Shown here one piece after another: positions 2,225-19,908 of a stretch of DNA of 64,000 nt (position 1 is the stretch's first letter; every line of letters starts with the position of its first letter). The notes beneath the pieces are model-generated. The model was given only the letters and a program-made list of their open reading frames with translations. It was not told the origin of the DNA and did no database searches. A program made the position numbers and the translations under genes. The DNA lies in contig JBBSWN010000010.1 in assembly GCA_038046265.1 (NCBI GenBank), positions 7,693-71,692 on the forward strand, given 5' to 3'. The stretch is from Nanobdellota archaeon (GTDB lineage: Archaea; Nanobdellota; Nanobdellia; SCGC-AAA011-G17; JACPIM01).

Positions 2225-2713
2225 ATGATGAACAATAAAGGACAATTAATGGAGAAGCCGTTTATTTTTATATTTACAGTAGTTGTTGGAGCATTGATTT
2301 TTATTTTTGGTTTTTACTTGATAAATAATTTAATGAAGGCAGGAAACTGCAGCCAGTTAGGAATATTTGTGAATGACTTAAAAAACGAGGTTGAAAGATA
2401 CTATAATTTTGACATTGGAAGTGCTACTGAAGTAAATTTAAAATTACCAAAGAACATAAAGAATGTTTGCTTTTACACCAGAGATGATTATTTAAACAGA
2501 GCTGAATTTGACAAGATTGACAAGGGATTGTTTGATGCTGTGAATAATTTAGACTATAATGTGATATTTCTGCCTTTGAATACTTGCACAAAGGGATTTT
2601 TTAAGGTAATTAATTTTAAACCCAAGGAAAATCCCACTTGTGTTGTAAATAAAGGAAAGGTGAAATTAAATTTAGAAAACAAGGGAGAATATGTAGAGCT
2701 TTCTAAGAATTAG
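2225..2713 (+). CDS. type IV pilin-like protein (archaeal class III signal peptide)
   Basis: N-terminus MMNNKG|QLMEKPFIFIFTVVVGALIFIFGF: a short basic leader ending in KG followed by a ~22-aa hydrophobic segment. Confidence 0.45.
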   Translation: MMNNKGQLMEKPFIFIFTVVVGALIFIFGFYLINNLMKAGNCSQLGIFVNDLKNEVERYYNFDIGSATEVNLKLPKNIKNVCFYTRDDYLNRAEFDKIDKGLFDAVNNLDYNVIFLPLNTCTKGFFKVINFKPKENPTCVVNKGKVKLNLENKGEYVELSKN

Positions 2714-3872
2714 TTTTTAAATGCTTGTCTAGGAACTGGTAAGCTTGCTCGTGATATTCTAGAGGAAATTCATGAGCTTTGTTTGGAATAAGGCCAATTT
2801 TTAAATTTTCTTCTTTTTCCAAAGTCTTGTAAAGATCTGTAATTGGCTTAAATATTTGTTTTTCAATAAAATCTTTGGGAAAGATAGGATCATTTTCTGT
2901 ATAGATTATCATCAAAGGCCTGGGGGAAATTAAAGCCAAGACAGCATCACCATTAGTGTATTTTGCAATTCCAGGAAGAATTGAGAGCCAGGTTTGAGTG
3001 CCTCCGAAAGTTGGCGGTTCTCTAAAGTTCTCAACAGAGCTGGACAAGACAACAGCTTTTATTCTTTCATCTATTGCTGCCAAGTACATGCATCTTACAC
3101 CGCCGTATGAATGACCAATGCAGCCAATGTTGTTTTTGTCTATTTCTGGAAAAGAATTAAGTAAAAAATCCAATGCACGAATGTCCTCATTAATTGTTAT
3201 TCCAATTGGAGAATATCCTAATTCAAATAAGTCTTGCGCAGCTCTATTTTCTCTTACTTCATGAGAGTCATTTATAATGTCCTGCCTCATGCCAAAAGTA
3301 GAAGTGTCCATTGCAAAAACAAAATACCCTCTTTCAGCCAATTCTTTACCGTAAAACATGGTTTCATCTCCAATGTTTCCAATTGCTTCTGCTGAGCCAT
3401 ATTTTGTGTCGCCACGCTGATGCATTGCTATTATTAATGGGGCTGGGAATTTAATGTCTTTAGGTGCTAAAAAATAAACAAGGGTGCCGGAAGAATTTGT
3501 AGTTGCAATTGTCATTTTATTTTCTGAATATTTTCCTTTATCTATAGGTGCTTCATAATTAATGACCATTTTATTTACTGAAATTGGAATTAATGGGGAG
3601 GATAACAAAGATGAGAGCTCTTTTCCAAAGCTTTTGTCGAATTTTTCCTTCTGCTTCCTGGTTTTTATTTCAGAAACATCATACAAGGGCTTGTTTTTTT
3701 CAGCATCCCTGTTTACAGCTGAAAAGGAATTTACGGCAAAAGAAGATAAATATGCTTCTGGATTTTTTATTTCTTCTTTTGGAAGATTTTTGTAAACAAA
3801 TAAAATTAGGAATAAAAGAAGTATAGAAATGTAAAGAATCCTAAATTTATTTTCCTTAAGGTTGAACATCAT
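2703..3872 (-). CDS. membrane-anchored alpha/beta hydrolase (S9/DLH/PAF-AH-like; GHSYGG nucleophile elbow), tandem copy A
   Basis: N-terminal TM anchor; nucleophile elbow CIGHSYGG; Asp in IIYTENDPIF and His in NKAHEFP complete the triad. Nearly identical to the next gene. Confidence 0.7.
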   Translation of the reverse strand: MMFNLKENKFRILYISILLLFLILFVYKNLPKEEIKNPEAYLSSFAVNSFSAVNRDAEKNKPLYDVSEIKTRKQKEKFDKSFGKELSSLLSSPLIPISVNKMVINYEAPIDKGKYSENKMTIATTNSSGTLVYFLAPKDIKFPAPLIIAMHQRGDTKYGSAEAIGNIGDETMFYGKELAERGYFVFAMDTSTFGMRQDIINDSHEVRENRAAQDLFELGYSPIGITINEDIRALDFLLNSFPEIDKNNIGCIGHSYGGVRCMYLAAIDERIKAVVLSSSVENFREPPTFGGTQTWLSILPGIAKYTNGDAVLALISPRPLMIIYTENDPIFPKDFIEKQIFKPITDLYKTLEKEENLKIGLIPNKAHEFPLEYHEQAYQFLDKHLKTNS

Positions 3873-5041
3873 TCTTGTTTTTGCTTTAAATGCTTGTCTA
3901 GGAACTGGTAAGCTTGCTCGTGATATTCTAGAGGAAATTCATGAGCTTTGTTTGGAATAAGGCCAATTTTTAAATTTTCTTCTTTTTCCAAAGTCTTGTA
4001 AAGATCTGTAATTGGCTTAAATATTTGTTTTTCAATAAAATCTTTGGGAAAGATAGGATCATTTTCTGTATAGATTATCATCAAAGGCCTGGGGGAAATT
4101 AAAGCCAAGACAGCATCACCATTAGTGTATTTTGCAATTCCAGGAAGAATTGAGAGCCAGGTTTGAGTGCCTCCGAAAGTTGGCGGTTCTCTAAAGTTCT
4201 CAACAGAGCTGGACAAGACAACAGCTTTTATTCTTTCATCTATTGCTGCCAAGTACATGCATCTTACACCGCCGTATGAATGACCAATGCAGCCAATGTT
4301 GTTTTTGTCTATTTCTGGAAAAGAATTAAGTAAAAAATCCAATGCACGAATGTCCTCATTAATTGTTATTCCAATTGGAGAATATCCTAATTCAAATAAG
4401 TCTTGCGCAGCTCTATTTTCTCTTACTTCATGAGAGTCATTTATAATGTCCTGCCTCATGCCAAAAGTAGAAGTGTCCATTGCAAAAACAAAATACCCTC
4501 TTTCAGCCAATTCTTTACCGTAAAACATGGTTTCATCTCCAATGTTTCCAATTGCTTCTGCTGAGCCATATTTTGTGTCGCCACGCTGATGCATTGCTAT
4601 TATTAATGGGGCTGGGAATTTAATGTCTTTAGGTGCTAAAAAATAAACAAGGGTGCCGGAAGAATTTGTAGTTGCAATTGTCATTTTATTTTCTGAATAT
4701 TTTCCTTTATCTATAGGTGCTTCATAATTAATGACCATTTTATTTACTGAAATTGGAATTAATGGGGAGGATAACAAAGATGAGAGCTCTTTTCCAAAGC
4801 TTTTGTCGAATTTTTCCTTCTGCTTCCTGGTTTTTATTTCAGATATGTCATATAAGGGTTTGTTTTTTTCAGCTTCTTTACTTACAGCAGTAAAGGAGTT
4901 TACATCAATTAAATATATATGTGCTTCTGGATTTTTTATTTCTTCTTTTGGGAGATTTTTGTAAACAAATAAAATTAGGAATAAAAGAAGTATAGAAATG
5001 TAAAATATCTTGAATTTACGTTCTTTAAGGTTGAACATCAA
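3869..5041 (-). CDS. membrane-anchored alpha/beta hydrolase, tandem copy B
   Basis: Protein identical to copy A across the catalytic core; differs only at the N-terminal anchor region and the last 4-5 residues. Confidence 0.7.
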   Translation of the reverse strand: MMFNLKERKFKIFYISILLLFLILFVYKNLPKEEIKNPEAHIYLIDVNSFTAVSKEAEKNKPLYDISEIKTRKQKEKFDKSFGKELSSLLSSPLIPISVNKMVINYEAPIDKGKYSENKMTIATTNSSGTLVYFLAPKDIKFPAPLIIAMHQRGDTKYGSAEAIGNIGDETMFYGKELAERGYFVFAMDTSTFGMRQDIINDSHEVRENRAAQDLFELGYSPIGITINEDIRALDFLLNSFPEIDKNNIGCIGHSYGGVRCMYLAAIDERIKAVVLSSSVENFREPPTFGGTQTWLSILPGIAKYTNGDAVLALISPRPLMIIYTENDPIFPKDFIEKQIFKPITDLYKTLEKEENLKIGLIPNKAHEFPLEYHEQAYQFLDKHLKQKQE

Positions 5042-5088
5042 TCTGCTTTTGCAAAAGTATTTATATTATTTTCTCTTGTTAAAAGTTT

Positions 5089-5958
5089 ATGAATAAAAAA
5101 GGGATGGAAATTACTTTTAATTGGATTTTTGTTATAATTGCTGGGAGTGTTTTATTGATGTTTTTCCTGTTTTTTGCGTGGAAACAGATAGGATTGTTTA
5201 ACAAATTAGGGATTAATGAGGTAGTTTCAAAATTGAACAATGAAATAGATTCTTTTGCTATAGGGGTTTCACTGAACAAGGTTGTTGAACTGCCTAAAGG
5301 TGTTGATATTAGTTTTAAATGCGGGGAGGTTGTTTTTAAAGGGGCAAAAAAAGACACCTTACATTTAATTTATGCTGAAGGGGATTTTAGAGAGAGATTT
5401 AATTTATGGACAAATGCATGGGTATTTCCTTTTAAAGTTGACAATTTATACTATACTACAAATTCTAATGGGAAGATGTTTATTATTGGAAATGAGAATT
5501 TTTTCTTTAATATACCTAATAAATTTCCAAAATCTAATAATTTAAACCAGGAAGTTGGAAAAAACGATGTTATAGTTGATTTTACAAATTCTAATTTACA
5601 AAGAAATTATAGAGAAAATAAGGTATTAGTAATAGACAGCTCAAGAAATATGATAACTTTTTTTCCTGAGAACAAAAAAGAGGAGTTTTATGGGGAGGAA
5701 ATGATTTATGGGGGTATATTTTCTAGTTATACAGAGTATTCCTGCCTAAGGAAAAAGGCTTTAGAAAGACTAAATGTAATTTCCGAGCTATATAAAAAGA
5801 AGGCTGGATTGCTTAAATTAAATTCAAAATGCAACTTTTTGTATAGTGAAATGGAAAAGACATTAGAGCTTTTTAAGAGAGAGCCATTAAAGTTTAAGAA
5901 TGTGTTAATTGAGCAGAATGACAATTTAAAAAGGAGCGGGTGTGCAAGTGTCTTTTAA
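5089..5958 (+). CDS. type IV pilin-like protein (class III signal peptide)
   Basis: MNKKG|MEITFNWIFVIIAGSVLLMFFLFF; a TATA-like tttatattat lies ~25 nt upstream. Confidence 0.45.
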   Translation: MNKKGMEITFNWIFVIIAGSVLLMFFLFFAWKQIGLFNKLGINEVVSKLNNEIDSFAIGVSLNKVVELPKGVDISFKCGEVVFKGAKKDTLHLIYAEGDFRERFNLWTNAWVFPFKVDNLYYTTNSNGKMFIIGNENFFFNIPNKFPKSNNLNQEVGKNDVIVDFTNSNLQRNYRENKVLVIDSSRNMITFFPENKKEEFYGEEMIYGGIFSSYTEYSCLRKKALERLNVISELYKKKAGLLKLNSKCNFLYSEMEKTLELFKREPLKFKNVLIEQNDNLKRSGCASVF

Positions 5959-6526
5959 AACCTTTTTAGGAAAAAGCTTTACCAAAAAGAAGAACAAAGG
6001 TTCTTATCAACTCCTGGGGAGGAGGGGGCAGGCTGAATTGTCAGAGACTCTGCTTGTTTTGCTAATTGTTGTGTTTTTAATTATAGCAGGGATATTTGTT
6101 TATTATTTGTTTTTTTACAGGAGTTTAGGGAGTATAGGGAGTGAGAAGACTGATTTTGAGAACTTGATATTATTATATACCTTAGGTCAGTCTCCTGAAT
6201 TAAAATGCGAGAATGAGGATTGTGTTGATGTTGTAAAGCTGTTTGCTTTTAAGGAATTAGTTAAAGAGAATAAAGGTTATTATGTTGAGAGGTTTGGGAA
6301 AAGAAGGATAATTATAGAGAGTGTTTACCCGAAATTAAATGAAAATATGCAAAAAACAGAGTGCATATTAGAAAAGTACCAACAAAGCAGTTTTCCGAAT
6401 AATTGTGGGTACATTATAGTTTATGATAATTTACAAAACAACAAAGGAGCATTAAGCGTAAGCCTGCCTGTTTCACTAAACTATGGAAATGAGTATAGAA
6501 TAGGGATGTTACGGGTGCAAGTATGA
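5942..6526 (+). CDS. pilin-like or N-terminally anchored protein (start uncertain; alternative TTG at 6038)
   Basis: ...RRG|QAELSETLLVLLIVVFLIIAG matches a class III signal. The called N-terminus, however, translates the dispersed intergenic motif at 5958-5988, and GGAGGAGGGGG precedes an in-frame TTG at 6038. Confidence 0.4.
   Translation: MQVSFKTFLGKSFTKKKNKGSYQLLGRRGQAELSETLLVLLIVVFLIIAGIFVYYLFFYRSLGSIGSEKTDFENLILLYTLGQSPELKCENEDCVDVVKLFAFKELVKENKGYYVERFGKRRIIIESVYPKLNENMQKTECILEKYQQSSFPNNCGYIIVYDNLQNNKGALSVSLPVSLNYGNEYRIGMLRVQV
5958..5988 (+). promoter_or_regulatory. dispersed motif copy (AACCTTTTTAGGAAAAAGCTTTACCAAAAAG)
   Basis: Member of the motif family described in findings. Confidence 0.35.
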
Positions 6527-6999
6527 GAAGCCTTTTTGAAAAAAAGCCTTTAGGGAAAAATTTTGATAAACTGGGGCAGGCTGAAATGATTGGGCTGGCT
6601 ATACTAGTGGTTATTCTTGTTGTAATTTTAGTTATTGCCTTAAATTTTAATTTTAAACCAAATGATGACAAAGCTGATTTAAGAAAAAACTTAATCGCCA
6701 ATAATCTGCTGAATGCCTTAATCAAGCAGCAAGGAAAGGTAAATATAAAGGAGTTAATTGATGAGTGCTATAGCGAGAAGAGAAGAAATGTCAATAATGG
6801 ACAAAATTGCTTGAAATTGGAAAATGAATTAAATAATGTTTTTTTAGCTGTTTTGGTTAATAGAGATTATAAGGTAAATTTAAGGGCAAATGAAGATTCT
6901 TTTTTTTCAGGAGGAAGTTGCAATAGAGGTATAACAAGCACTCTTTATAGATTTAAAGAAAAAGGAACTTTATTTACAGCTAATTTAACCATTTGCTAA
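6523..6999 (+). CDS. pilin-like or N-terminally anchored protein (start uncertain; alternative ATG at 6586)
   Basis: ...KLG|QAEMIGLAILVVILVVILV; the called N-terminus again overlaps a motif copy (6531-6560). The stretch GGGGCAGGCTGAA(A/T)TG is shared with the previous gene. Confidence 0.4.
   Translation: MRSLFEKKPLGKNFDKLGQAEMIGLAILVVILVVILVIALNFNFKPNDDKADLRKNLIANNLLNALIKQQGKVNIKELIDECYSEKRRNVNNGQNCLKLENELNNVFLAVLVNRDYKVNLRANEDSFFSGGSCNRGITSTLYRFKEKGTLFTANLTIC
6531..6560 (+). promoter_or_regulatory. dispersed motif copy (variant CCTTTTTGAAAAAAAGCCTTTAGGGAAAAA)
   Basis: Motif family, read by eye. Confidence 0.3.
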
Positions 7000-7262: not shown

Positions 7263-9584
7263 ATGCAAAGACTAAAACAAGCCATTAGAAGAGTGGCTGC
7301 TTTAGGTGTTGGTGTTGCTATGTTAGGAGCAACAGTTACAGGTGCAATGGCACAAGCAGCAAGTTTAGATTTGGCTAATCTTCCAGAGCCGTTTGTTTCT
7401 AAAGAGGGAGTTTATAATGATGATACAGCTTTAGTTGTAGGAAGCAAAGCAGATGTATCTGATACTTTAGGTATTGCTGACGTATCTGCAAAACTGCAGT
7501 TCTTGTCAAAGCAAGCTGTAAGTACTTCAGGTACAGTAAGTGTAACAGGTGGAGTTACAGAAGATGTTCCTTTAGATCTAGGAATTGCTAATACAACAGC
7601 AGTTGCTTTGGATTTCTCACTAGAGAAAGCAGATATTGGAAGTTTCTTTGATGGAACAATTAATTTCTTAGATGAAGATATTGAAGCACATGATGAATTA
7701 GTGTTTTTAAGAACAAGTCCATCACTTGAAACAAGTTTAACAAGTTCAGATGATGATTATGAAAGCAATGTATTTTTAGAAGCTGCAAAGGGAGCTATGA
7801 AATACTACTATGTATTTGATGATGCTCTTAATGTATCTAAGGCAACATCATCAGACCCATTGGAAATTAAATTCTTGGGGAAGACTTTAAAGATTACATC
7901 AGTAGAAGCTTCACAAAATAAGTTTACTGCAACAGTTGGTACAGAATACTTTATGAAGGTAGGAGACTCTATTACTGTTGAAGGCAAGAAAGTTACATTA
8001 CAGAATGTAGGAAGCAGTGGAGCTGTTTTAGTTGATGTTGATGGAAAAGTAGACACAATTGATGCAGATTCAAGCAAAGTTGTAAACAATGTTGAAATTA
8101 AAAATGATGACACATTTTATGCAACTTCTAAATCTGAAAGAAGTGCAGCTTTAATTGTAGGAAAAAATGCACAAGATACTTTTGCAGATGGAGATCCTTA
8201 TGTTGGAGAGAACAAGAATAATCCTGACTGGACATGGAAGTTAGGAAACTTGGGAGCAAAAACAGCAACAACAGTATCTAGCGGTGCGACTGATCCTACA
8301 GGTCCATTTATTGGAATTCAAAATGACTTTGTAAAAGATGATGATACAGACAACCCAGTAGGTATTGGGGAATGTTATTCATTACCAAACAACTATGCTC
8401 AAGTTTGTTTAGACAGCTTGACAGTACCTGACACAGATTATTTAACAGTAACATTAGAATATCAGAGCAGTGTTGATACAGCAAAGTCAAAATATGACAA
8501 AGGAAGTTCAAGTTCAAGAGTAATACACATTTCAGCACCAGGAACAGACAGATTTGTTATTCCAGCTGGAATAGACCCATTTATTGAAAATGGAACTTTA
8601 AATGACAATGATGTAAAGACAAGCGAAGTATGGATACAAACAGAAGATGTAGATGCACCAACTTCAGGTGGTTTTGCGTTATTCTATAAAGATGAAAACC
8701 AAAACCCAAACATAGTTTACATAGGTAACTTGTCTATTGCCAATATGTCAATTACTAACAAAGGTGGTTTACCTTCTCGTGGTGTTGGTTTTAATTCTAC
8801 AGCAGGAGACTATTTTTTAAAATTGAATTACCTAAAGACAAAAGACACTAATGTAAGGTTTATGTTGGTTCCAACAACATTAAATACTACAAGAGGTTTA
8901 ATTGTAGGTGTTGTAGGAGACTCGACTACAGAATTAGACTCAGGAACAGATGACTTTTACACAAACTGGTCAATTGGAACTGGTAACTGGACTGCGTTAG
9001 GTTTAACAGCAGCAAAAGAAGAAGCAGCAGAGTTAACATGGGCTACATCCAGCGCATCAGCATTTACACAATTAGGTGCAAAAGATGAAGACCATAGATC
9101 AAAATATGGTATTATTTTGAGAGACCCTAAGAGCAATGGTGCTTCTGACAGAGTAGTTTTCGAAGTACCAGGTGATCAAGTACAAGCTAATGTAGTTGTA
9201 AAAGGTTCAGCAACAACAGTATCTGGTGGAGGAGTAACATACATACCAGCAAAGATTACTGTAAACACTTTGAAAGATACTGAAGTAAGTGATCCTAGTG
9301 CATACAACTTAATCTTGGTAGGTGGTCCTTGTGCAGATCCTTTAGTTGAAAGAGTATCTGGCTTGGGTGTAAGTTGTGGTGCATGGCCATTATCTCCTGG
9401 AGAAGCTATGCTTAAATTAGGAGCAAATGGGGACAAAGTAGCATTATTAGTTGCAGGTACAGATGCTGCAGACACAAGAATGGCAGCAAAAGTATTTAGT
9501 GACTTTGAAGACTACAAGTTGAGCGGAACACAAGCAACATTGGCAGGCAGCATTAATGCGCCTACTGTAAAGAGCAGAGCTTAA
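7263..9584 (+). CDS. S-layer-like / major surface glycoprotein
   Basis: N-terminal signal peptide (RRVAALGVGVAMLGATVTGAMAQAAS); 773 aa, rich in Thr/Ser/Asp/Gly/Val; many N-x-S/T sequons; codon usage distinctly GC-richer than the flanks (high expression); strong RBS. Confidence 0.55.
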   Translation: MQRLKQAIRRVAALGVGVAMLGATVTGAMAQAASLDLANLPEPFVSKEGVYNDDTALVVGSKADVSDTLGIADVSAKLQFLSKQAVSTSGTVSVTGGVTEDVPLDLGIANTTAVALDFSLEKADIGSFFDGTINFLDEDIEAHDELVFLRTSPSLETSLTSSDDDYESNVFLEAAKGAMKYYYVFDDALNVSKATSSDPLEIKFLGKTLKITSVEASQNKFTATVGTEYFMKVGDSITVEGKKVTLQNVGSSGAVLVDVDGKVDTIDADSSKVVNNVEIKNDDTFYATSKSERSAALIVGKNAQDTFADGDPYVGENKNNPDWTWKLGNLGAKTATTVSSGATDPTGPFIGIQNDFVKDDDTDNPVGIGECYSLPNNYAQVCLDSLTVPDTDYLTVTLEYQSSVDTAKSKYDKGSSSSRVIHISAPGTDRFVIPAGIDPFIENGTLNDNDVKTSEVWIQTEDVDAPTSGGFALFYKDENQNPNIVYIGNLSIANMSITNKGGLPSRGVGFNSTAGDYFLKLNYLKTKDTNVRFMLVPTTLNTTRGLIVGVVGDSTTELDSGTDDFYTNWSIGTGNWTALGLTAAKEEAAELTWATSSASAFTQLGAKDEDHRSKYGIILRDPKSNGASDRVVFEVPGDQVQANVVVKGSATTVSGGGVTYIPAKITVNTLKDTEVSDPSAYNLILVGGPCADPLVERVSGLGVSCGAWPLSPGEAMLKLGANGDKVALLVAGTDAADTRMAAKVFSDFEDYKLSGTQATLAGSINAPTVKSRA

Positions 9585-9587
9585 GCA

Positions 9588-9640
9588 AAAAAGCAGAAAC
9601 TCTTTTTTATTTCTTTTTTATTTTATCTTTTTTCTTATTT
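9588..9640 (+). terminator. oligo-T tracts after the S-layer gene
   Basis: ctcttttttatttcttttttattttatcttttttc; archaeal termination is known at oligo-T. Confidence 0.3.
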
Positions 9641-9684
9641 ATTAATTTAGAAAACTTTAATAACAAAAACAGAAAGAAAAGTTT

Positions 9685-10830
9685 ATGAAAAAAACTTTAA
9701 TTGTTATTTTTTTGATTATTTTACTGGGGTTTTTTTATTTAAAAGAAAGAGAGTTTAAAATAGAAACTATTGAAAGCATAGGGAAAAGCGAGAATTATTA
9801 TTTTGTATTTCCTTCTATAACAGAACTGCATAAAGATGATGTTTTTGAGTTTAATGTTGATAAAGTAGATAATTTAAGGGAGAAAAAGAAGTTTGACAAA
9901 AAACTAAGATCAAAAGTAATTGAATTGTTAAAAATGCCTGATTACGTTGTTTTAGAGCCAAGAGCTGACATTGTTAAAGATGAGGACAAGGGAAAGTATA
10001 TTGAAAGAAAAATAAGGATATACACTTCTTTTAACACATTATCACATGCTTATTTATTAATTCCAAAGGAGAAAAACAACAAAATAGTAATAGCAATGCA
10101 CCAGCATGGGGGGAATTATGAATATGGAAAAGAGGAAGTTGTTGGCAATTTAGGTGATGAAAATATGTTTTTTGGAAAAGAGTTGGCTGAAAGAGGATAT
10201 TTTGTTTTTGCAATGGATGCCCCTTTATTTGGGGAAAATAACTTGTTTTTTGAAAATTCTACTGGTGTAAAAAGAAATTCTGCTGAAATTGAGGAGCAAT
10301 TTGCAACACAAAGCCTGCTTTTATATGGATATACTCCTTTAGGTGCTATTTTACAGCAAGACATGACTGCCTTGAATTTTTTATTAAGTTTAGAGGGTTT
10401 TGACAAGGAAAATATTGGGTGTATTGGGCATTCTTTTGGGGGAGCAAGATGCATGTACTTGGCAGCAATGGATGAAAGAATAAAAGCTGTTGTTTTGTCT
10501 AATTCTGTTGCAAATTTCAGGAGAGATTATGACAAAAGCATATTACATACTTGGTTAACTTTACTGCCTGGAATAGCTAAATATACTGAGATTAATGGAG
10601 TTTTAGGGTTAATTGCACCAAGACCATTAATGATAGTTTACAGTGAGAATGATCCAATTAATCCAGAAAATGAGGTAAAAGAACAGATTTTGTCTATGGA
10701 AAATTTATATGAAAAGTTAGGCAGAAAAGAAGAATTTAAAAGTTTATATTTAAAAGGAAAAGCGCATGAATTTCCTCTAGAATATCACGAGCAAGCTTAT
10801 GAATTTTTTGACAAAAACCTAAAAAATTAA
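9685..10830 (+). CDS. membrane-anchored alpha/beta hydrolase paralog 3 (GHSFGG)
   Basis: N-terminal TM; motifs AMHQHGGNYEYGKEEVVGN, CIGHSFGGARCMYLAA, SENDPI, GKAHEFP are shared with the other three paralogs. Confidence 0.7.
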   Translation: MKKTLIVIFLIILLGFFYLKEREFKIETIESIGKSENYYFVFPSITELHKDDVFEFNVDKVDNLREKKKFDKKLRSKVIELLKMPDYVVLEPRADIVKDEDKGKYIERKIRIYTSFNTLSHAYLLIPKEKNNKIVIAMHQHGGNYEYGKEEVVGNLGDENMFFGKELAERGYFVFAMDAPLFGENNLFFENSTGVKRNSAEIEEQFATQSLLLYGYTPLGAILQQDMTALNFLLSLEGFDKENIGCIGHSFGGARCMYLAAMDERIKAVVLSNSVANFRRDYDKSILHTWLTLLPGIAKYTEINGVLGLIAPRPLMIVYSENDPINPENEVKEQILSMENLYEKLGRKEEFKSLYLKGKAHEFPLEYHEQAYEFFDKNLKN

Positions 10831-10885
10831 GTTTATAAAATACAGAAAGTTTATTTTTATAATGCCGCGATCGCATAACCTGGTA

Positions 10886-11126: not shown

Positions 11127-11196
11127 TTTAAATATTAGTTAGACTTAATTAGTAAAGTATTTAAATAAGTTAATCTTATTAGTAAGATACACTTAT

Positions 11197-11980: not shown

Positions 11981-13030
11981 ATGAAAATCGGCTTTGTTAA
12001 TTTGACACCACTTGTTTATGATGTGGAAACACCTCTTAGTTCTCCTTTAGGAGGGTCAGAGTCAGCAATGTGCTATTTGGCTCAGCATTTAAGCACTGCT
12101 GGACATGAAATAACACTTTTTAGAAAGAGCAATGGAGAATTTAATAAGTCAGGAGTTACTCATTTACCAATAAACAAAATTAAGGATGAATTACTAGATT
12201 TTTTGATTATACAGAATACACCATTTTCAGCACCAAAAATCAAAAAAATAATTAGCCGGAAAACGAATATGATTTTTTGGTCGCAGCATGCAGCTGATCA
12301 AAAAGCAGTTGAATCTTTAAAAAATAATGATGTTCTTAAGATTTTTGACAAAATAGTTTTAGTGAGTGAATGGCAAAAAAAGAATTACCTAGAGATGTTT
12401 GGAATAGAGGAAAATAAAATTGAGATAAAACGAAATGCTATTTCTCCTGCATTTGAAAATTTAAAAGGCATAAAAAAAGAATGGTCAATGGCGTATACAA
12501 GCACCCCTTTTAGAGGATTGAATTTACTGCCTGAAATTTTTGAGAAAGCCAGAAAAATAAGACCTGATGCAGCATTATCAGTTTTTTCCAGCATGAAAAT
12601 ATATCAAGCAAATATGCAAGCTGAAAAAGAATTTGAATGGCTTTATAACAAATGCCGAAATACACAGAGTATTGAATATGTGGGTGCTATATCTCAGAGT
12701 GAGCTTGCAAGCAAACTAGCTGAAATTGAAATTTTGGCATATCCCAATACTTTTGCTGAAACTTCCTGCATTTCTGTGATGGAAGCCATGGCTGCTGGGT
12801 GTCAGGTAGTTACAAGTAATTTAGGTGCGCTGCCTGAAACAACTGCAGGATTTGCAAGACTAGTTAATATAGAAGGAAAAGAAAGACAAGATTATATTGA
12901 AGACTTTGTCAAAGCATTGACAATAACAATAGATCAATCAAAAATCAGGAAGCAGGTTGATTTTGTTAATGAAAACTATATTTGGAAGAAAAGGGCAAAA
13001 GAATGGGAAGAGTTTTTATTAAAAATCTGA
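11981..13030 (+). CDS. glycosyltransferase, GT4-like (GT-B fold)
   Basis: C-terminal EAMAAGCQVVTSNLGALPE motif characteristic of GT1/GT4 enzymes. Confidence 0.55.
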   Translation: MKIGFVNLTPLVYDVETPLSSPLGGSESAMCYLAQHLSTAGHEITLFRKSNGEFNKSGVTHLPINKIKDELLDFLIIQNTPFSAPKIKKIISRKTNMIFWSQHAADQKAVESLKNNDVLKIFDKIVLVSEWQKKNYLEMFGIEENKIEIKRNAISPAFENLKGIKKEWSMAYTSTPFRGLNLLPEIFEKARKIRPDAALSVFSSMKIYQANMQAEKEFEWLYNKCRNTQSIEYVGAISQSELASKLAEIEILAYPNTFAETSCISVMEAMAAGCQVVTSNLGALPETTAGFARLVNIEGKERQDYIEDFVKALTITIDQSKIRKQVDFVNENYIWKKRAKEWEEFLLKI

Positions 13031-13067
13031 GAATAGATTTAAAAACATGTTTAAGTTGATTTATTAA

Positions 13068-13874
13068 ATGGTAAATGCCAAAATATTAGTTGGTTGTCCA
13101 ATATATGACAAATCAGAGTATTGTTTTGATGAGTTTTTAAAAGCTGTAAGGGCTTTTGATTATGATAATTTTGACATATTAATAATAGATAATTCAAGAG
13201 ACAAAGATTTTTACAACAGAAAGCTAAAAGATTTAAAAGATGTTACAGCAATTTATTTAAATTTAAAAGAGGAGAAAAACTTAAAGAGGTTAGCATTAAC
13301 AAGAAATGAGATTATTAATTATTTTTTAGGTAAAGATTATGAATATTTACTTATGATGGATTCTGATGTTATTGCCCCTCCTTATATAATAAAAGAACTA
13401 TTATTACAGGACAAGGATATAATTTCTGGGCTTTATTTTAATTACTTTGTTAAAAATGGGAAGAATATTTTACTGCCAGTAGCATGGAGAACTATTGAGG
13501 AAAGAGAATTTGAGATGCTTAAAAAGGCAAACAAAGTTCCTTATGGATGCAGTTCAAAAGAAGATATAAGAGTGCATTTAGATTCTGCAGAATATTCAAG
13601 CAACAGAGTTTTTGAAGTAATAATGCCATCTGCCGGGTGCATGCTTGTAAAAAGAACTGTTTTAGAAAAAGGAATTAGATATGGTGTTTTAAACAAAGAT
13701 GAGATAAGGAATGCGAAAAAATCAACTTCAGATGATGTTTACTTTATGAGGGAAGTTTTTAAAAATGTGTTTAAGGCTTATTGTCATACTGGAATTAAAT
13801 GCAAACATCTGTTACTAGGAAAATATAGAAAAGATGAGGAAAAAAATGAGATGTCACATCCATTATATAAATAA
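13068..13874 (+). CDS. glycosyltransferase, GT2-like
   Basis: N-terminal Rossmann-like region IIDNSRD ... LLMMDSDV (DxD-like). Confidence 0.4.
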   Translation: MVNAKILVGCPIYDKSEYCFDEFLKAVRAFDYDNFDILIIDNSRDKDFYNRKLKDLKDVTAIYLNLKEEKNLKRLALTRNEIINYFLGKDYEYLLMMDSDVIAPPYIIKELLLQDKDIISGLYFNYFVKNGKNILLPVAWRTIEEREFEMLKKANKVPYGCSSKEDIRVHLDSAEYSSNRVFEVIMPSAGCMLVKRTVLEKGIRYGVLNKDEIRNAKKSTSDDVYFMREVFKNVFKAYCHTGIKCKHLLLGKYRKDEEKNEMSHPLYK

Positions 13875-13878: not shown

Positions 13879-15270
13879 TTATTCTGGTTCTACTTTTCTT
13901 GTTTTTCCTGAAATAACATATCTTATTGTGCCTGAAAATTCCTCGAACATAGCTTTATAAGGTTTTAATGAGCCTCTTCTTATTTGTCTTAAGAAATATT
14001 TAGGGCTTAAGTAATAATTAATATATGTATTTCTGATTTTTTTCCTTACAAAATCATAAGTCAAGGAAGTGTTAATATATTTGTTATACAAATTTTGATC
14101 GTAAAGAGACCAGTTTTCCTGCAAGATGCCTTTGTCTTTGTGCATTTTCCATAATTCAGTACCAACAATAGGGGTTATTGAGAAAATCCACATATAGTCT
14201 GGCATAATTTCATATATCATGTCAATTGTTTCTTGAATACTTTCTTTTGTTTCTTCTGGGGAGCCAAACATAAAAGATGCTTTTGTAGAGATTCCGTGTT
14301 TATGGCATAAATCAAATGCTTTTCTTATCTTGTTTTTTGCTTCAATTTGGTTATCTCCAAGGCCTTTGTCAAGATTCTGCAATATTTTTGCAGAGCCTGA
14401 TTCAACACCAAAATTAACCATATGACAGCCAGAGTCGGCCATTAATTTTGCATTATCTTCTCTTAATGTGTCAACTCTGCTTAAACAACACCAAGACATA
14501 TCAAGGTCTTTCAAGCCTTTACAAATTTTAATTAATCTTTCCTGCTTTAATGGAAAAACATCATCATAAAACAAGATTTCTTTTCTTTTGTATTTTTCCT
14601 TTAGTTCCTGGATTTCACCCAAGACATGTTCAGCACTTCTAAACCTTACTATTCTGTCCCAGGTGATTTTTGATGCACAATAAATGCAGTTTGCAAAACA
14701 GCCTCTTGAGGAAAAAACAGTTGCTGCAGGCTTTAGTCCTTCCCATGTAAAATGTATGTCATATTTATCCATGTCAACAAGGTGCCTAGCTGGATAAGGC
14801 AGAATGTCCAAGTTTTCAATAAAGGGCCTGTCTTGATTATGTATTATTTTATTATTTTCCTTATAAGAAATTCCCAAGATGTTTTTAAGTGGTTTTTCTT
14901 CTGCAATTTCAACTATTGTAAGGTCTGCTTCTTTTTTAGCTACTATGTCTGCATCAATTTCTTTTAAAGCCATTTCCGGAAGAGCTGAAGCATGACTGCC
15001 ACCAATCATTATTTTTGCATTTGGATTATAGGACCTTATGTCTTTTATTATTTCCTTTGTTTTTACAACATTTGGTGTAGAGAAACTTAAACCAATTAAT
15101 TTTGAGTCAAAGAAATTTTTTAGAGGTGTTTTATCAACTGACATGTCAAGGACTTTAACTTTGAAATTATTTTTTTCTAGATTTGCTGCGAGCTGGAGAA
15201 TTCCCAATGGTTCTGGAATGTTTACATAAGTAGAACTTTCAACATTTATCAGACTAATTTCAGAGCTCAT
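13879..15270 (-). CDS. B12-binding-domain radical SAM enzyme
   Basis: N-terminal B12-binding-like region (KIMIGGSHASALPE) followed by the FSSRGCFANCIYC CxxxCxxC motif. Confidence 0.6.
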   Translation of the reverse strand: MSSEISLINVESSTYVNIPEPLGILQLAANLEKNNFKVKVLDMSVDKTPLKNFFDSKLIGLSFSTPNVVKTKEIIKDIRSYNPNAKIMIGGSHASALPEMALKEIDADIVAKKEADLTIVEIAEEKPLKNILGISYKENNKIIHNQDRPFIENLDILPYPARHLVDMDKYDIHFTWEGLKPAATVFSSRGCFANCIYCASKITWDRIVRFRSAEHVLGEIQELKEKYKRKEILFYDDVFPLKQERLIKICKGLKDLDMSWCCLSRVDTLREDNAKLMADSGCHMVNFGVESGSAKILQNLDKGLGDNQIEAKNKIRKAFDLCHKHGISTKASFMFGSPEETKESIQETIDMIYEIMPDYMWIFSITPIVGTELWKMHKDKGILQENWSLYDQNLYNKYINTSLTYDFVRKKIRNTYINYYLSPKYFLRQIRRGSLKPYKAMFEEFSGTIRYVISGKTRKVEPE

Positions 15271-15302: not shown

Positions 15303-15878
15303 TTATTTTTTTGCTATTCCTAATAAATCCAAGATAAATTTGGTAGAAGCTTTTATTATTTCTTCTTCTGTTTTGCCTTCAACAATAATGCATTCTTCTT
15401 GCTTGAAAACCTTAGATTCTTCCCCAAGCCTTAAAACAATTATAGATTCTGTTGTTGTTACGTCTGAGCAAGTTTTTACAGGGATGTTTTCTTTTTTATA
15501 TGTTAGGGCTGTTTTTACAGGCAGGTTAAACAAAAACTGGTTTCCAATTATTTTTGCTATTTCTGCAGCTGCAATCACGCTTTCAGATGTTAATTCCGGA
15601 GTCAGGGTTATAAAAACTTCTTCTCTTATTACTCTTTCTTTGATGTTTTCCTCTATCTCTATATAATCTAGAGTTCTTGGGTCATATCTTACTGATATGT
15701 AATGGGGATTTTGGTCGTTTTTAAGAAAGACTTCTATGTCATATACAACAGGAGCTGTTTGATAAATTTTATAGCCATTATACTTAAAAACATTGTCTCT
15801 GCTAGAATTATATAAGTAATAAGAACCTAATAACAAAAGAAGTATTACAAGAGATGCTAAAACCTTCTTTTTTGCCAT
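15303..15878 (-). CDS. small N-terminally anchored protein, paralog A (LPVKTC motif)
   Basis: N-terminal TM; shares LP[VI]KTC.D...[IV]IV...C...G..E.I...LL with the next gene. Confidence 0.45.
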   Translation of the reverse strand: MAKKKVLASLVILLLLLGSYYLYNSSRDNVFKYNGYKIYQTAPVVYDIEVFLKNDQNPHYISVRYDPRTLDYIEIEENIKERVIREEVFITLTPELTSESVIAAAEIAKIIGNQFLFNLPVKTALTYKKENIPVKTCSDVTTTESIIVLRLGEESKVFKQEECIIVEGKTEEEIIKASTKFILDLLGIAKK

Positions 15879-15880
15879 TT

Positions 15881-16432
15881 TTATGCTGTGAGAAGAGATA
15901 TTATCAGTTGATCGATGAATTTTATTATTTCTGTTTCATGGCCTTTAATTTCAAGGCAATTATTAATGTATTTTATCTCTTTATTAATTGCTTTTTTTAC
16001 AATTACGACTTTATTTAAATCTTTCGCATCTTGGCATGTTTTAATTGGGAGTTTAGAACATTTTTCACTGTCTTCAAAACAAGAGTTTACTGATTTCGGA
16101 GTTAAAATTTGAGTTAACATGTTTAACTCCTGGTAAATTAAGTTATTAGATTCATTTTGGTCAGAAGAAAAGTAGATTTTTTCAGCTGAATTTAATTGTT
16201 TTGGATTAATTATTTTTTGTTCTTCCAATGATTCAGGATCAAATGACAGGGAAATTGGGTTATTATTTACATAAACAACCCATTTGTTGTTTATGCTGCT
16301 GAATTCAAGGCCTTTGTATTTTTTTATATCTGGGTTGTTTTCTTCTGGAAGAGAAACAAAACCAGCAATACTAGTAATCATTAGAAAAGATATGAACAAG
16401 GCTAAAATCAGTTTCTTTTTCTTAGTGTCCAT
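15881..16432 (-). CDS. small N-terminally anchored protein, paralog B (LPIKTC motif)
   Basis: N-terminal TM; the C-terminal half is alignable to 15303-15878. Confidence 0.45.
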   Translation of the reverse strand: MDTKKKKLILALFISFLMITSIAGFVSLPEENNPDIKKYKGLEFSSINNKWVVYVNNNPISLSFDPESLEEQKIINPKQLNSAEKIYFSSDQNESNNLIYQELNMLTQILTPKSVNSCFEDSEKCSKLPIKTCQDAKDLNKVVIVKKAINKEIKYINNCLEIKGHETEIIKFIDQLIISLLTA

Positions 16433-16470
16433 AAAATTCTTTTTAGATTATTATTTATAAACCTTTTTGA

Positions 16471-16578: not shown

Positions 16579-18450
16579 TTAAAATTTAAATTCACTAGAC
16601 AAATCTTTACTAGTGAACCTTATTTCGCCTTTTTTCTTTTTGCCCTTTCCTTTTAATAGGAAGTAAGCTGCAACCACTACTGCCAAAATCAATAAGACTA
16701 CTACGATAACACCAGCTTTTCCTGGTTTTTCTGCTTCTGCAGGTGCTGATGGTTGAGTAGGTGTTTCTTCTACTTTTGGCGGTATTTTTACTGGCTTGAT
16801 CATTACTTTAGCTTCTTCATCTTGTACTGATGTTAACTTTACTACAACATCATTGTCGCCATCGCCATCTAAATCTACTTCTCTTGACTCACCAACATTT
16901 AAGGTTATGTCATTTGGTGTAGATTCAAGCCTTATTGTAGCACTTGTTGCTGTTACTTTAAGGAAAGTCAAAGTGTGTTGTGTTTCTCCATCTAATGTAA
17001 AGGTTGAAGATTCTCCTTGAAGACCAGAAACTTCTCCTTCTGGAGCTGATCCATCAACTGATCTGCTTAAATCAACTTCAGCTACTTTTTGTTCTTCTGC
17101 TTCTTCTTCAACTGAAACTCCTTCATCTCCTTCATAGAATGCTGTGAATTCTTTTTCAGAAGTTGTTGAGAACTGTACTGAGTCTTCAACACTACATTTT
17201 ATCTTGTATTTTCCTGCTTGACCTGTTTCTGTTGCCTTAAATTCAGGTTCAAATTTGAAACCACCTGACTGTGATTTTGTTATTGTTGCACCATTTGGTT
17301 TTGTAAGAGTTACTGTGAATATTACTTTTGATGTGTCATTTGTTTCACATGTTGCAGTAATTGTGTTTTCAACAGCTATTCTTGACTTACTAAGTGAAAG
17401 AACAGATCCTGGGGCTGTACCATCTAAAGTTATGTTGAAACCTCTTCCATTGTTTGATACATTTACTGTGTTGCCTGCTGAGTCATTTGCAACTATCATG
17501 AAGATAATTGATCTACCCTCTGCAAGATCAGTTAAGCTGTCAACCATTCTTACTTCACCTGATCCATTAGCATCTTTTCCAGCAAATCTCAATGAACCGT
17601 TTAATATAGTGTCGTTATTGCTGGTGAAAGGCGAGTGCTGATTATTCATTGTCATGTTGTTTGGATTTGTTGATGACAGTGCACCAGTATCAGCTGCTAA
17701 AGGACTTCCATTGAACAACCAATATATTCTTGCTGAATATAAATGAGGTTCATCTACTGAAATTGAGACTTTTAGATTAGTTCCATTTCTTAAGTAAGCG
17801 TTATTACCAGTTGTTCCATTTAAGTCAACTAATACAACTGTGTTTGTACCATCAGATACATTCAAGGAACTTATTGAGAATACAGGCCTTGCTTTGTCAA
17901 TGGTTATTGTTCTGTTAGCTGAGAAGTTTTTTCTGTGTTGCAGAGTGTAAGATGCATTAGATGTTGCATTTAAACCTGCTTGACAGGCAACGGTGTAGTT
18001 TCCGTCAGCTATAAGAAGATTTCCTGTGTTAGCTCCATTAGCATCATATGTTACTGTACTAGCATTAAATGCCTTGAATCTAATTCTTAGCAAATTAAGA
18101 GTGCCATTTTGCTCGAGAACATGTGTGTAGTTAAAAGGTGATGCTGAAGTGTTTGTTACATTCATTGAAATGTTGTTTGAGCCAGATGCAAATCCATGGA
18201 AATTATGGAATAAGGATATGTTAGCAATTCTCTGGCTAGAAGTAAATACTACTGCACTACAAGTAATATTCAGGTTTCTACCTGTTGTAATATTATAATT
18301 GCTGATGTTAACACCGCCAGATTGTATCTGCGCTACAGTAACTTCTATAGCTCCTTCTGTTGTTGGCGCTACAGCATTAACAAAAACAACGTATAAACTC
18401 AAAAGAACTAATAAATTTATAAGATAAAAGATTAACCTCTTATTATTCAT
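16579..18450 (-). CDS. large sequon-rich surface (glyco)protein with C-terminal TM anchor and Lys-rich tail
   Basis: N-terminal signal/TM; dozens of N-x-S/T sequons (NIS, NIT, NAS, NGT...); Thr/Pro/Glu-rich linker; C-terminus PGKAGVIVVVLLILAVVVAAYFLLKGKGKKKKGE. Confidence 0.55.
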   Translation of the reverse strand: MNNKRLIFYLINLLVLLSLYVVFVNAVAPTTEGAIEVTVAQIQSGGVNISNYNITTGRNLNITCSAVVFTSSQRIANISLFHNFHGFASGSNNISMNVTNTSASPFNYTHVLEQNGTLNLLRIRFKAFNASTVTYDANGANTGNLLIADGNYTVACQAGLNATSNASYTLQHRKNFSANRTITIDKARPVFSISSLNVSDGTNTVVLVDLNGTTGNNAYLRNGTNLKVSISVDEPHLYSARIYWLFNGSPLAADTGALSSTNPNNMTMNNQHSPFTSNNDTILNGSLRFAGKDANGSGEVRMVDSLTDLAEGRSIIFMIVANDSAGNTVNVSNNGRGFNITLDGTAPGSVLSLSKSRIAVENTITATCETNDTSKVIFTVTLTKPNGATITKSQSGGFKFEPEFKATETGQAGKYKIKCSVEDSVQFSTTSEKEFTAFYEGDEGVSVEEEAEEQKVAEVDLSRSVDGSAPEGEVSGLQGESSTFTLDGETQHTLTFLKVTATSATIRLESTPNDITLNVGESREVDLDGDGDNDVVVKLTSVQDEEAKVMIKPVKIPPKVEETPTQPSAPAEAEKPGKAGVIVVVLLILAVVVAAYFLLKGKGKKKKGEIRFTSKDLSSEFKF

Positions 18451-18756
18451 TTATTGCCACCTCTCAATATTTGTTATTTATTCTCTTTTTTTATTTTTTT
18501 TGAATTCTTTAAATTGATATTTGTATATTTAAAGCTATAAACATAAAAGAACACATAGCTTATATATAAAGGTTTTGGTGATTTATATATTATATTCTTA
18601 AAATCTGTTTTTAATGCCTTTTCTGGCAAATTTACTGCATAATAAATAACTAAAATAAAAAGCAACACAAACTTTAATAATTGGAAAATAGTACAAACCT
18701 TTGTAAATTTGTTATAATTATTAGTTAATGGTTAGTCATGTTTAAACAGTGCAAAG

Positions 18757-19908
18757 ATGAAAAAAGGATATATTTTCTGGGGGTTTTTTATTATTTTGTT
18801 GTTAATATTTTCGTTTTTTTATAATTTTGAGGATAATCCCAAAAATAGGGAATTTAATAAACCTGAAAAAGCCTTTATAAACAGTTTTTTTGCACTTAGA
18901 TATAAATACGAAAGTATAAAACCTGATTTTGATGTTAGCAGCATAAAAAATACAAAAGACAAGGAAAAATTTGACAAATCTTTGAAAAAAAAGCTTTTAG
19001 AATTATTGAATATGCCTTTTGATGAAGTTCCTGTTGATAAGCTTTTAAATACTTATACCACCATAGACAAAGGGACTTATACTGAAAATGCGCTTACTTT
19101 ACATACTTCTGAATATTCTTTGGCATCAGCTTATCTTCTTATACCAAAGAATTTGAAAGAAAAGAATCCAGCTATAATAGCAATGCACCAGCATGGTGAA
19201 AATTATGAAAATGGAAAAGAGGAAGTTGTCGGCAATAAAGGAGAACCAGATTTAGCTTATGGAAAAGAGCTAGTTGAAAGAGGGTATGTTGTTTTTGCAA
19301 TGGATGCTCCTTTATTTGGCGAGAGACTTAATTTTGGGGGGGGTTCTGGAGCTGTACAGGAAGTTAATGCTGCACAAGACTTATTTTTATTTGGACACCC
19401 GCCTTTAGGAGTTATAGTTCAAGAAGATTTAGTAAGTTTAGATTATTTATATTCTTTAGATTTTATTGACAAGGATAATATAGGGTGTATTGGGCATTCT
19501 TTTGGTGGTGTAAGGTGCATGTACTTGGCAGCTTTAGATGAAAGAATTAAAGTAACTGTTTTATCAAGTAGCGTAGCTAATATTAAAAAAGAACTAAGCA
19601 GCGGGGCAACTCATACTTGGTTTTCAATTTTACCTGGAATAGCAAGAGTTACTGAAACTAGCGGCATTTTAGCTTTAATTTCTCCAAGACCTTTGATGAT
19701 AGTTCACACTGATAATGATCCAATTTTTCCATCTGATGAAACCCAACAAAACATAGATTCTGTTTATGGACTTTATGGTTTATTGGAAAAAAGAGAGAAT
19801 TTTGATTATTTTTTCATAAAAAATGAGAAGCATACATTTCCGAAAGAAGCTCATAACTTAGTTTATGAGTTTATGGACAAGCACCTTAAAAAACAGCTTT
19901 ACACATAA
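18757..19908 (+). CDS. membrane-anchored alpha/beta hydrolase paralog 4 (GHSFGG)
   Basis: IAMHQHGENYENGKEEVVGN, CIGHSFGGVRCMYLAA, HTDNDPIF and an N-terminal TM. Confidence 0.7.
   Translation: MKKGYIFWGFFIILLLIFSFFYNFEDNPKNREFNKPEKAFINSFFALRYKYESIKPDFDVSSIKNTKDKEKFDKSLKKKLLELLNMPFDEVPVDKLLNTYTTIDKGTYTENALTLHTSEYSLASAYLLIPKNLKEKNPAIIAMHQHGENYENGKEEVVGNKGEPDLAYGKELVERGYVVFAMDAPLFGERLNFGGGSGAVQEVNAAQDLFLFGHPPLGVIVQEDLVSLDYLYSLDFIDKDNIGCIGHSFGGVRCMYLAALDERIKVTVLSSSVANIKKELSSGATHTWFSILPGIARVTETSGILALISPRPLMIVHTDNDPIFPSDETQQNIDSVYGLYGLLEKRENFDYFFIKNEKHTFPKEAHNLVYEFMDKHLKKQLYT

Follow-up and report, generated by a model that had tools for sequence, protein, structure and literature searches.

By profile search and structure comparison, the closest characterised relatives of the enzymes described here are carbohydrate esterases, namely BT1017 (PDB entry 6GOC) of Bacteroides thetaiotaomicron, which is credited with founding a new pectin methylesterase family, and members of the carbohydrate esterase (CE) families CE15 and CE7. 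The catalytic triad of BT1017, S282/D352/H388, has been confirmed by mutagenesis, and the structure closest to it is 3NUZ (PMC7939467). Here we examine four hydrolase genes, H1 to H4, in a 64 kb stretch of DNA from a Nanobdellota archaeon (assembly GCA_038046265.1, contig JBBSWN010000010.1, positions 7,693 to 71,692; hereafter the window), which an earlier note had read as carrying a cell-surface island of pilin-like genes and membrane-anchored hydrolases. We think it probable that the four are anchored Abhydrolase_7 serine carboxyl-ester hydrolases with the N-terminus inside and the C-terminus outside (N-in/C-out), most likely acting on sugar or small soluble esters, and this shifts the hypothesis for the locus from the scavenging of lipids or peptides to glycan-bound esters. 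Attachment to other cells is the way of life of DPANN archaea, whose surface enzymes are very poorly known. In the literature on DPANN or Woesearchaeota hydrolases, esterases, S-layers and pilins we found nothing on this gene cluster.

The four hydrolase open reading frames (ORFs) are true paralogues, as had been proposed, and every ORF named in the earlier note exists. H1 (2703..3872, minus strand; 389 amino acids, aa) and H2 (3869..5041, minus strand; 390 aa, TTG start) are tandem copies 1 and 2 in a position that we call slot A, between pilin-like genes A and B. H3 (9685..10830, plus strand; 381 aa) occupies slot B, directly after an S-layer gene, and H4 (18757..19908, plus strand; 383 aa) occupies slot C, after the gene for a surface glycoprotein. 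The tandem pair shares 96% aa identity and 97% nucleotide (nt) identity over 1169 bp, H3 and H4 are 44-52% identical to the other copies, and no fifth copy was found by tblastn within the 64 kb. All four proteins belong to the alpha/beta-hydrolase superfamily and to Pfam Abhydrolase_7 (PF12715), which is their top-scoring Pfam family (40.7-46.9 bits against a gathering threshold of 21; H1, 40.9 bits, E 2e-10; H3 and H4, E 3e-12), and the NCBI record for H4 is named 'alpha/beta hydrolase family protein [Nanoarchaeota archaeon]'. The motifs AMHQ(H/R)G and GHS[FY]GG are present in 4/4 hydrolases; ENDPI and KAHEFP are present in H1-H3, but H4 has DNDPI and EKHTFP, a small deviation from a motif set that had been described as the same in every copy. 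Ser, Asp and His of the triad are invariant in the alignment of H1-H4. Across 122 homologues, Ser250 (H3 numbering, here and below) and its flanking Gly are likewise invariant, and conservation is at least 90% at D323, H361 and H139.

A profile made from these 122 homologues was then searched against the PDB. The best matches were 3NUZ (2.8e-30) and 3G8Y (1e-28), whose alignments begin at about residue 25-60, N-terminal extension included, followed by a metagenomic MHETase (3e-21), BT1017 (1.6e-19) and the CE15 glucuronoyl esterases (~1e-15 to 1e-18; best 4.6e-18), while S9 peptidases such as DPP4 reached only ~1e-7 to 1e-9. An AlphaFold2 (AF2) model of H3 (predicted local distance difference test, pLDDT, 92.6) gave a consistent picture in Foldseek, with 889 PDB matches at E<=0.001, the best 50 of 889 all being alpha/beta-hydrolase esterases; 3G8Y and 3NUZ again came first (TM 0.67-0.68), ahead of CE15, BT1017 and the CE7 acetyl xylan esterase / cephalosporin C deacetylase. 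The profile columns of S250, D323 and H361 align with BT1017 chain residues S288, D358 and H394, which are S282, D352 and H388 in the numbering of the published work. Model and alignment thus agree with the alpha/beta-hydrolase fold and Ser-Asp-His triad that had been proposed from the motifs. The loop H139-Q-H141-G142 aligns beside the oxyanion-hole residue His201 of BT1017, with a register uncertain by two residues. In the mechanism that we propose, Ser250 on the GHSFGG nucleophile elbow would be activated by His361 (in AHEFP) and Asp323 (in ENDPI), and the H139-Q-H141-G142 loop would supply the oxyanion hole.

The more specific assignment made earlier, to a fold like that of S9 peptidases, dienelactone hydrolases (DLH) or platelet-activating-factor acetylhydrolases (PAF-AH), was not upheld: Pfam favours Abhydrolase_7, with S9 and DLH marginal and PAF-AH below threshold. 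DLH (PF01738) scores 21.2-26.5 bits against a cut-off of 21, well under Abhydrolase_7, and PAF-AH (PF03403) matched only H3, at 13.3 bits against 20 (E 0.03) over 32 residues around the nucleophile. What the archaeal hydrolases have in common with these three families is the alpha/beta-hydrolase fold and the nucleophile-acid-His order, and the matches begin just before the nucleophile elbow. CE15 membership was rejected as well (PF22244, 13.7-18.7 bits against 27; a G-H-S-F/Y-G-G motif without Arg after the nucleophile), the AXE1, GCE_fung and PETase Pfam models scored under their cut-offs, and an NCBIfam scan of the hydrolases returned sub-threshold noise only, weak Dpp5 matches included.

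Those Dpp5 matches, together with the distant DPP4 hits, are among the points that could favour surface serine peptidases (S9/S15/S33-like), which would release peptides or amino acids or process the S-layer or pilin-like proteins. The Peptidase_S9 model (PF00326) also passes its 22.6-bit cut-off in H3 (27.4 bits) and H4 (34.6 bits). However, H1 (21.6 bits) and H2 (21.8 bits) fall under that cut-off, and the match, starting just before the elbow, covers only residues 231-289 in H1 and runs to the C-terminus in the other three. At ~385 aa the proteins have no beta-propeller or other S9 N-terminal domain, their N-terminal extension aligns with Abhydrolase_7 structures, and their matches to esterases are better by 10 to 20 orders of magnitude. 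We therefore rejected S9 membership, and we regard a peptidase function as very unlikely.

Each of H1-H4 carries one N-terminal hydrophobic segment, in keeping with the transmembrane (TM) anchor claimed for all four. The same arrangement was found throughout the archaeal subfamily (38/38 members; a single segment of 16-23 residues near the N-terminus), with an N flank that is purely basic (mean net charge +2.45) and a C flank that is neutral to acidic (-0.87). Under the positive-inside rule this charge bias predicts an N-in/C-out orientation, with the catalytic domain outside the membrane as had been supposed, and H1, for one, is predicted to be a signal-anchored Abhydrolase_7-type serine esterase. 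The H3 model has low confidence at about residues 21-40, just after the anchor, suggesting a short flexible stretch that would keep the catalytic domain near the membrane, beneath the S-layer or within it; since only this stretch follows the anchor, the enzymes would act between the membrane and the S-layer, not far from the cell. We are confident of the family, fold, triad and anchor as described. Two relatives (P0016 and P0023) have lipobox-like signals, FLTGC and INSC. Separately, a 145-aa ORF at 53556-53993 of the window (plus strand) has a match to Pfam Peptidase_A8 (lipoprotein signal peptidase II, LspA-like), an uncommon find in archaea. Given these signals and this ORF, a bacterial-type lipoprotein pathway may operate in the clade.

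Substrate class is a more speculative matter, and we propose glycan esters only tentatively. The likely substrates would be O-acetyl groups, methyl or other esters of uronic acids, and small soluble esters, and the ester-bearing glycans could belong to the cell's own envelope or be fragments from the surroundings or from a host surface. Glycan esters seem likeliest to us because the neighbours in sequence and fold act on sugar acetyl, methyl or alkyl esters or on small aromatic esters, and because the genes sit among S-layer, glycoprotein and glycosyltransferase genes. A membrane-tethered, predicted outward-facing enzyme would also suit a lipase or phospholipase that releases fatty acids or lipids from a host or from its surroundings and so supplies an archaeon unable to make its own: the general view is that DPANN archaea rely on their hosts for lipids, the alpha/beta hydrolases include many lipases, and two entries, 8yzo and 8yzn, appear far down the profile list (E ~1e-7). 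Yet the top sequence and structure neighbours are all carbohydrate or small-ester esterases, no lipase family scores well, and PAF-AH is below threshold. Archaeal membrane lipids, moreover, are ether-linked and have no carboxyl-ester bond, so that such an enzyme would work only on bacterial lipids, and the window itself encodes a lipid-related PAP2 protein and has a faint CTP_transf_1 match. On balance we consider a lipase improbable.

Several points weigh against our preferred reading of the hydrolases as outward-facing carboxyl-ester hydrolases of the envelope. Their identity to any characterised esterase is only 14-20%, the alpha/beta-hydrolase fold does not reveal substrate specificity, the nearest solved relatives (3NUZ and 3G8Y) come from structural genomics and have no assigned function, and the signature Arg of CE15 next to the nucleophile is missing. 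The Asp and His are putative assignments taken from profile alignment and a predicted model, and the predicted orientation is drawn from charge bias only. Finally, the hydrolases are tied to the surface genes around them by position only, and each hydrolase appears to have its own promoter region. Between the S-layer gene and H3 (9585..9684, plus strand), oligo-T runs follow the S-layer stop codon and a TTTAATAA box lies ~25 nt before the H3 ATG, and this box suggests that H3 has a promoter of its own. Between H2 and pilin-like gene B (5042..5088), 47 bp of AT-rich sequence separate divergent starts and may hold a promoter region common to both. With the oligo-T runs, the TTTAATAA box and the divergent starts 47 bp apart, the hydrolases look like transcription units separate from the pilin-like or S-layer operon.

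We then compared the locus with those of its relatives (given as L numbers). That the hydrolases are interleaved with four ORFs bearing class-III signals and an S-layer gene was confirmed, and the S-layer gene itself (7263..9584, plus strand) proved a true member of S_layer_C (PF05124; E 1.4e-12, 48.1 bits against a 23.9 cut-off), encoding 773 aa with a Sec-type signal, 9 N-glycosylation sequons and no C-terminal anchor. The gene order begins with a large surface protein (followed in part by a 93-aa protein), pilin-like A, an opposite-strand hydrolase and pilin-like B-C-D; it continues with the S-layer gene, a hydrolase, toxin-antitoxin pairs (with a radical SAM gene in part) and two small membrane proteins, and it ends with an N-glycosylatable 623-aa protein, a hydrolase and HisRS. 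This order is kept in L004/L005 (H3 orthologue 69% identical), L008 (50%) and L009 (52%). The S-layer protein, 72-84% identical to its orthologues against 50-69% for the hydrolases, is among the most conserved of the cluster; the pilin-like proteins range from 45% to 84% by lineage, and the radical SAM protein reaches 92%.

Occupancy of the three slots differs. Slot B, behind the S-layer gene, is occupied in each of the four related lineages in which the position is readable (L004/L012, L008, L009). Slot A holds 0 copies in L009, 1 in L004, L008 and L015, and 2 in the window and L014, and slot C is filled in the window and L013 and empty in L004 and L012. In L014 (NC_groundwater_568, a Woesearchaeota metagenome-assembled genome, MAG; 2081-4508), one of the two slot A copies is apparently frameshifted, as seen in two overlapping high-scoring segment pairs in different frames, and this would represent either an independent duplication or decay at the same site. 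A further paralogue, in GCA_964513145.1, has a phosphodiesterase-family gene, DUF362 and glycosyl/mannosyl-transferases as its neighbours. A distant DPANN relative (L092, GCA_964354685.1, 3983-12007; 25% identity) has a surface protein of 1824 aa and, directly after it, four pilin-like genes of 166, 333, 159 and 175 aa, three of them with [KR][AS]Q-type signals; the 333-aa protein has the homologous hydrophobic start ESQFNWIFV, and its called ORF starts too late for the leader. No hydrolase or S-layer gene stands beside this distant cassette, and for this reason the ancestral unit seems to be a giant surface protein with four pilin-like proteins, while the hydrolases and the S-layer adjacency seem specific to the clade of the window.

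These comparisons bear on a further alternative, namely that the co-localisation has no functional meaning: horizontally acquired hydrolases would have spread by duplication and recombination in a fast-evolving region and would act on unrelated substrates. The variable occupancy of slots A and C between close relatives, the frameshifted L014 copy, the distant cassette with its giant surface protein and neither hydrolase nor S-layer gene, the GCA_964513145.1 paralogue situated elsewhere by phosphodiesterase-family and glycosyltransferase genes, and the toxin-antitoxin pairs and other variable genes interspersed in the region all suit this explanation. Nevertheless, the slot B copy follows the S-layer gene directly in the four readable lineages, down to ~50% protein identity, and all copies found in these genomes adjoin surface or glycosylation genes. 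We judge an absence of any functional link a real possibility, although an unlikely one. The pilin-hydrolase linkage expected from the earlier reading thus holds within a narrow clade and not beyond it, as one of four lineages lacks a slot A copy and the distant cassette lacks hydrolases. The variation in slots A and C and that hydrolase-free cassette make the link between hydrolases and pilin-like genes a loose one, while the constant adjacency of S-layer gene and hydrolase argues that it is not purely accidental. Under our preferred reading, an offshoot of the esterase family would have settled in a conserved envelope cluster (large surface protein, four pilin-like proteins, S-layer protein and glycoprotein), where the hydrolases would multiply and recombine in three slots, with 0-2 copies in slot A.

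The hydrolases themselves are narrowly distributed. Among 185,579 species (one genome per species), copies of at least 45% identity occur only in four Woesearchaeota MAGs, 2/4 of which carry two copies each; the next matches, at 25-32%, come from Omnitrophota, Planctomycetota, Chloroflexota, Paenibacillus and others. In a library of 1.84 billion representatives, ~5 full-length 50%-identity clusters are of the archaeal type, and the score drops steeply after them (510 clusters at E<=1e-30, 4165 at E<=1e-10). Bacterial homologues at ~30% identity (for example P0046 and P0047) have no signal or anchor. The simplest reading is that the archaeal hydrolases are a small Woesearchaeota offshoot of a large, mostly bacterial family, probably acquired horizontally, and that this offshoot gained the signal-anchor. 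The Paenibacillus homologue adjoins a GFO/IDH/MocA oxidoreductase and an AraC-type regulator, with a glucuronate isomerase gene (UxaC) two genes away, a context that lends weak support to a sugar-related role. The closest genome relatives of the window are Candidatus Woesearchaeota MAGs. The window has ~31% G+C and carries archaeal informational genes (eIF2-gamma, L10/L1/L12-type ribosomal proteins, Sec61-beta and NAC). Identical proteins, recorded at NCBI under 'Nanoarchaeota archaeon', are encoded on contigs of the groundwater metagenomes 'Hain_H41' and 'Hain_H51' (0.1-micrometre filter fractions), sample names that we take to refer to Hainich groundwater wells. We conclude that the window comes from a Woesearchaeota-type DPANN archaeon.

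Within the tandem pair, H1 and H2 are identical at the nt level over codons 67-385 (957 nt), whereas they differ at 33 of the first ~210 nt (anchor and linker, ~16%) and at the last few codons. The pair was also recovered in two independent assemblies, L002, with a scaffold gap inside H1, and L096, gap-free and from another well (1148-3486). We rejected an assembly artefact as the source of the duplication, since three assemblies contain the unique 5' regions and the junctions of each copy. The two L096 copies likewise match one another perfectly across codons 67-385, and both differ from the copies of the window by the same 12 substitutions, clustered at nt 805-863, a pattern that would fit either gene conversion or repeat collapse in short-read assembly; because collapse gives the same pattern, the exact 957-nt identity is not secure.

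A second possible trace of exchange between copies comes from the L004 lineage, in which the slot A (4132-5292, minus strand) and slot B (10001-11152, plus strand) genes share a 93-nt perfect inverted repeat that spans the active-site region, against a background of ~60% nt identity. On one contig from another sample (L094, 1-3868), the block of pilin-like B-C-D and the S-layer gene is inverted, and its hydrolase (P0005) is a chimera, with the N-terminal two-thirds taken from the slot B gene and the C-terminal third from that of slot A. A reciprocal counterpart (P0020) is also present in the database, and the two are exactly the products that a crossover at the repeat would give. Four other assemblies have the canonical order, and a metagenome scan with the 50-nt core of this repeat gave one contig, which was canonical in its arrangement. 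The L094 arrangement could reflect a true inversion polymorphism or else an assembly misjoin at the repeat. That the hydrolase paralogues act as recombination substrates which remodel the surface-gene cluster, as this inversion and the identical stretch of H1 and H2 beside their divergent anchors might suggest, is, in our estimate, a long shot. If true, a switch based on homologous recombination would shuffle the C-terminal third of the enzymes (catalytic Asp, His and the substrate-facing loops) and also flip the S-layer/pilin-like block, and it would give a DPANN archaeon machinery for varying its surface, coupled to esterases of envelope glycans that take part in host contact.

The four genes with class-III-type signal peptides were borne out by motif, by conservation in orthologues and by a pattern scan, all lying on the plus strand. 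Pilin-like A (2225..2713; 162 aa, 4 Cys) has the signal NKKG followed by QLMEKPFIFIF, a motif kept in 4 lineages; B (5089..5958; 289 aa) has NKKG and then MEITFNWIFVII; C (5942..6526; 194 aa from a GTG start) has RRG and then QAELSETLLVLL; and D (6523..6999; 158 aa) has KLG and then QAEMIGLAILVV, with KKGQ in orthologues. All four signals consist of [KR]x?G, then Q (M in B), an acidic residue within 4 positions and ~20 hydrophobic residues. The GTG start of C gives an unusually long leader of ~28 aa, and this start is uncertain. The class-III features are kept in orthologues from three other lineages, and the distant relative repeats the pilin-like signals as [KR][AS]Q. A loose class-III pattern run over all six-frame ORFs of at least 70 aa in the window matched exactly these four, which is far from chance.

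The earlier talk of pili holds as far as these signal motifs go and no further. Pfam and NCBIfam matches at E<=0.1 included no pilin or class-III-signal family, only single sub-threshold unrelated families; the genes of the 64 kb include no prepilin peptidase, assembly ATPase or platform protein, and no candidate major pilin was identified among them. Protein B has 17 homologues among 5.8 billion proteins. Its AF2 model (pLDDT 81, with only 1/5 models good) places a helix of 55 residues at the N-terminus, then a beta sheet and, at the C-terminus, a bundle of helices, and it matched no PDB entry and no solved pilin. The label 'pilin-like' accordingly refers to the signal motif, and the four genes appear to form an orphan family. 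As the S-layer protein has no C-terminal membrane anchor, something else must hold it to the cell, and its class-III-signal neighbours are, speculatively, candidates for this role.

Upstream of the cassette lies the C-terminal part of a large Cys-rich surface protein (94..1827, plus strand; weak Ig-like/Y_Y_Y-like Pfam matches), whose gene runs upstream of the window; the frame is open upstream in L002, the full-length protein has 1253 aa in L096, and orthologues of 1245-1290 aa occupy the same position in L004 and L008. It is followed by a small conserved 93-aa protein (1905..2186, plus strand), which has no family match and has an orthologue inside the cassette in L009. Beyond H3, Pfam identifies a MazE-like antitoxin with a PIN toxin (11197..11876, plus strand), not part of the surface function, and two glycosyltransferases follow (11981..13874, plus strand; GT4-type, 349 aa, and GT2-type, 268 aa) that are absent at the same position in L004. 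On the minus strand lie a B12-binding radical SAM protein (13879..15270; 463 aa, the 92% being its identity to the L004 orthologue) and two small conserved proteins (15303..16432; 191 and 183 aa), each of no known family and with a hydrophobic segment at the N-terminus. The surface glycoprotein before slot C (16579..18450, minus strand; 623 aa) has an N-terminal signal, a C-terminal TM segment with a basic tail and 27 N-x-S/T sequons (4.3 per 100 residues); with orthologues in L004, L008, L012 and L013, it is a candidate second major envelope glycoprotein.

Toxin-antitoxin pairs (MazE/PIN, VapB/PIN, MazE/PemK and HicAB) are scattered through the region and also occur at ~51286-51890 and in L004, L008 and L009; their type and number differ between relatives, which marks the region as variable. 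Elsewhere in the window, the gyrase B gene (32969-36445, plus strand) is split by an intein that carries a LAGLIDADG homing-endonuclease domain, and gyrase A comes after it (36756-39167). The only Rfam match is a signal recognition particle (SRP) RNA (31257-31516, plus strand; 74.6 bits), which scores best with the bacterial large SRP model, ahead of its archaeal counterpart in the clan. A search of the window for tRNA genes gave none.

The locus matters for its setting: lineage-specific anchored esterases accompany the S-layer gene in one groundwater Woesearchaeota clade wherever the position is readable. Their soluble domains of ~320 aa, with a confident model, make them candidates for biochemistry. 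The four-gene pilin-like cassette beside the giant surface protein may in turn belong to an attachment apparatus. Archaeal type IV pilin-like proteins provide the nearest comparison for it, with a basic leader ending in G (A/S in the distant relative), Q or a hydrophobic residue next and an early Glu; for protein B the model predicts a long N-terminal helix and a beta sheet, and it matched no solved pilin. In bacteria, minor-pilin operons sit beside a large adhesin such as PilY1, and the row of four differently sized genes beside a very large surface protein offers an analogy to them.

Among the esterases, the Abhydrolase_7 proteins BF1801 (3NUZ) and BVU_4111 (3G8Y) of Bacteroides are the best match over nearly the whole protein, and an (A/S)PRP(L/I) segment after an extra loop is common to them and the archaeal hydrolases. 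They differ in being ~19-20% identical, in entry names that refer to SusD/RagB-associated or putative xylan esterases, and in the H-Q-H/R-G loop and signal-anchor of the archaeal enzymes, 3NUZ having G-S-G-G in the place of that loop. BT1017, the nearest characterised relative, resembles the archaeal hydrolases in its GxSxGG nucleophile motif, in the aligned triad and in the His after strand 3 near its His201, where H1 and H2 have Arg. It differs in its extra DUF3826 domain and zinc site, and its substrate, the plant pectin rhamnogalacturonan-II, is an unlikely one for the archaeal hydrolases; at 17% identity the homology to the BT1017-type family (CAZy CE19) is remote, and we do not claim membership. 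CE15 (OtCE15A and SuCE15) and CE7 belong to the same fold neighbourhood (Foldseek E 1e-12 to 1e-15; 14-17% identity). The CE15 motif is G-C-S-R-x-G, in which an Arg immediately follows the nucleophile Ser (for OtCE15A, PDB entry 7b7h names R268), and of the hexameric CE7 architecture the archaeal hydrolases give no sign. Together, these comparisons separate what was already known, an enzyme family common in bacteria and an NCBI annotation as alpha/beta hydrolase, from what is new, namely an archaeal signal-anchored offshoot, its constant position next to the S-layer gene within a single Woesearchaeota clade, and its local amplification and recombination. Current knowledge is not overturned by it: the enzyme family is an ordinary one, found in an unusual place.

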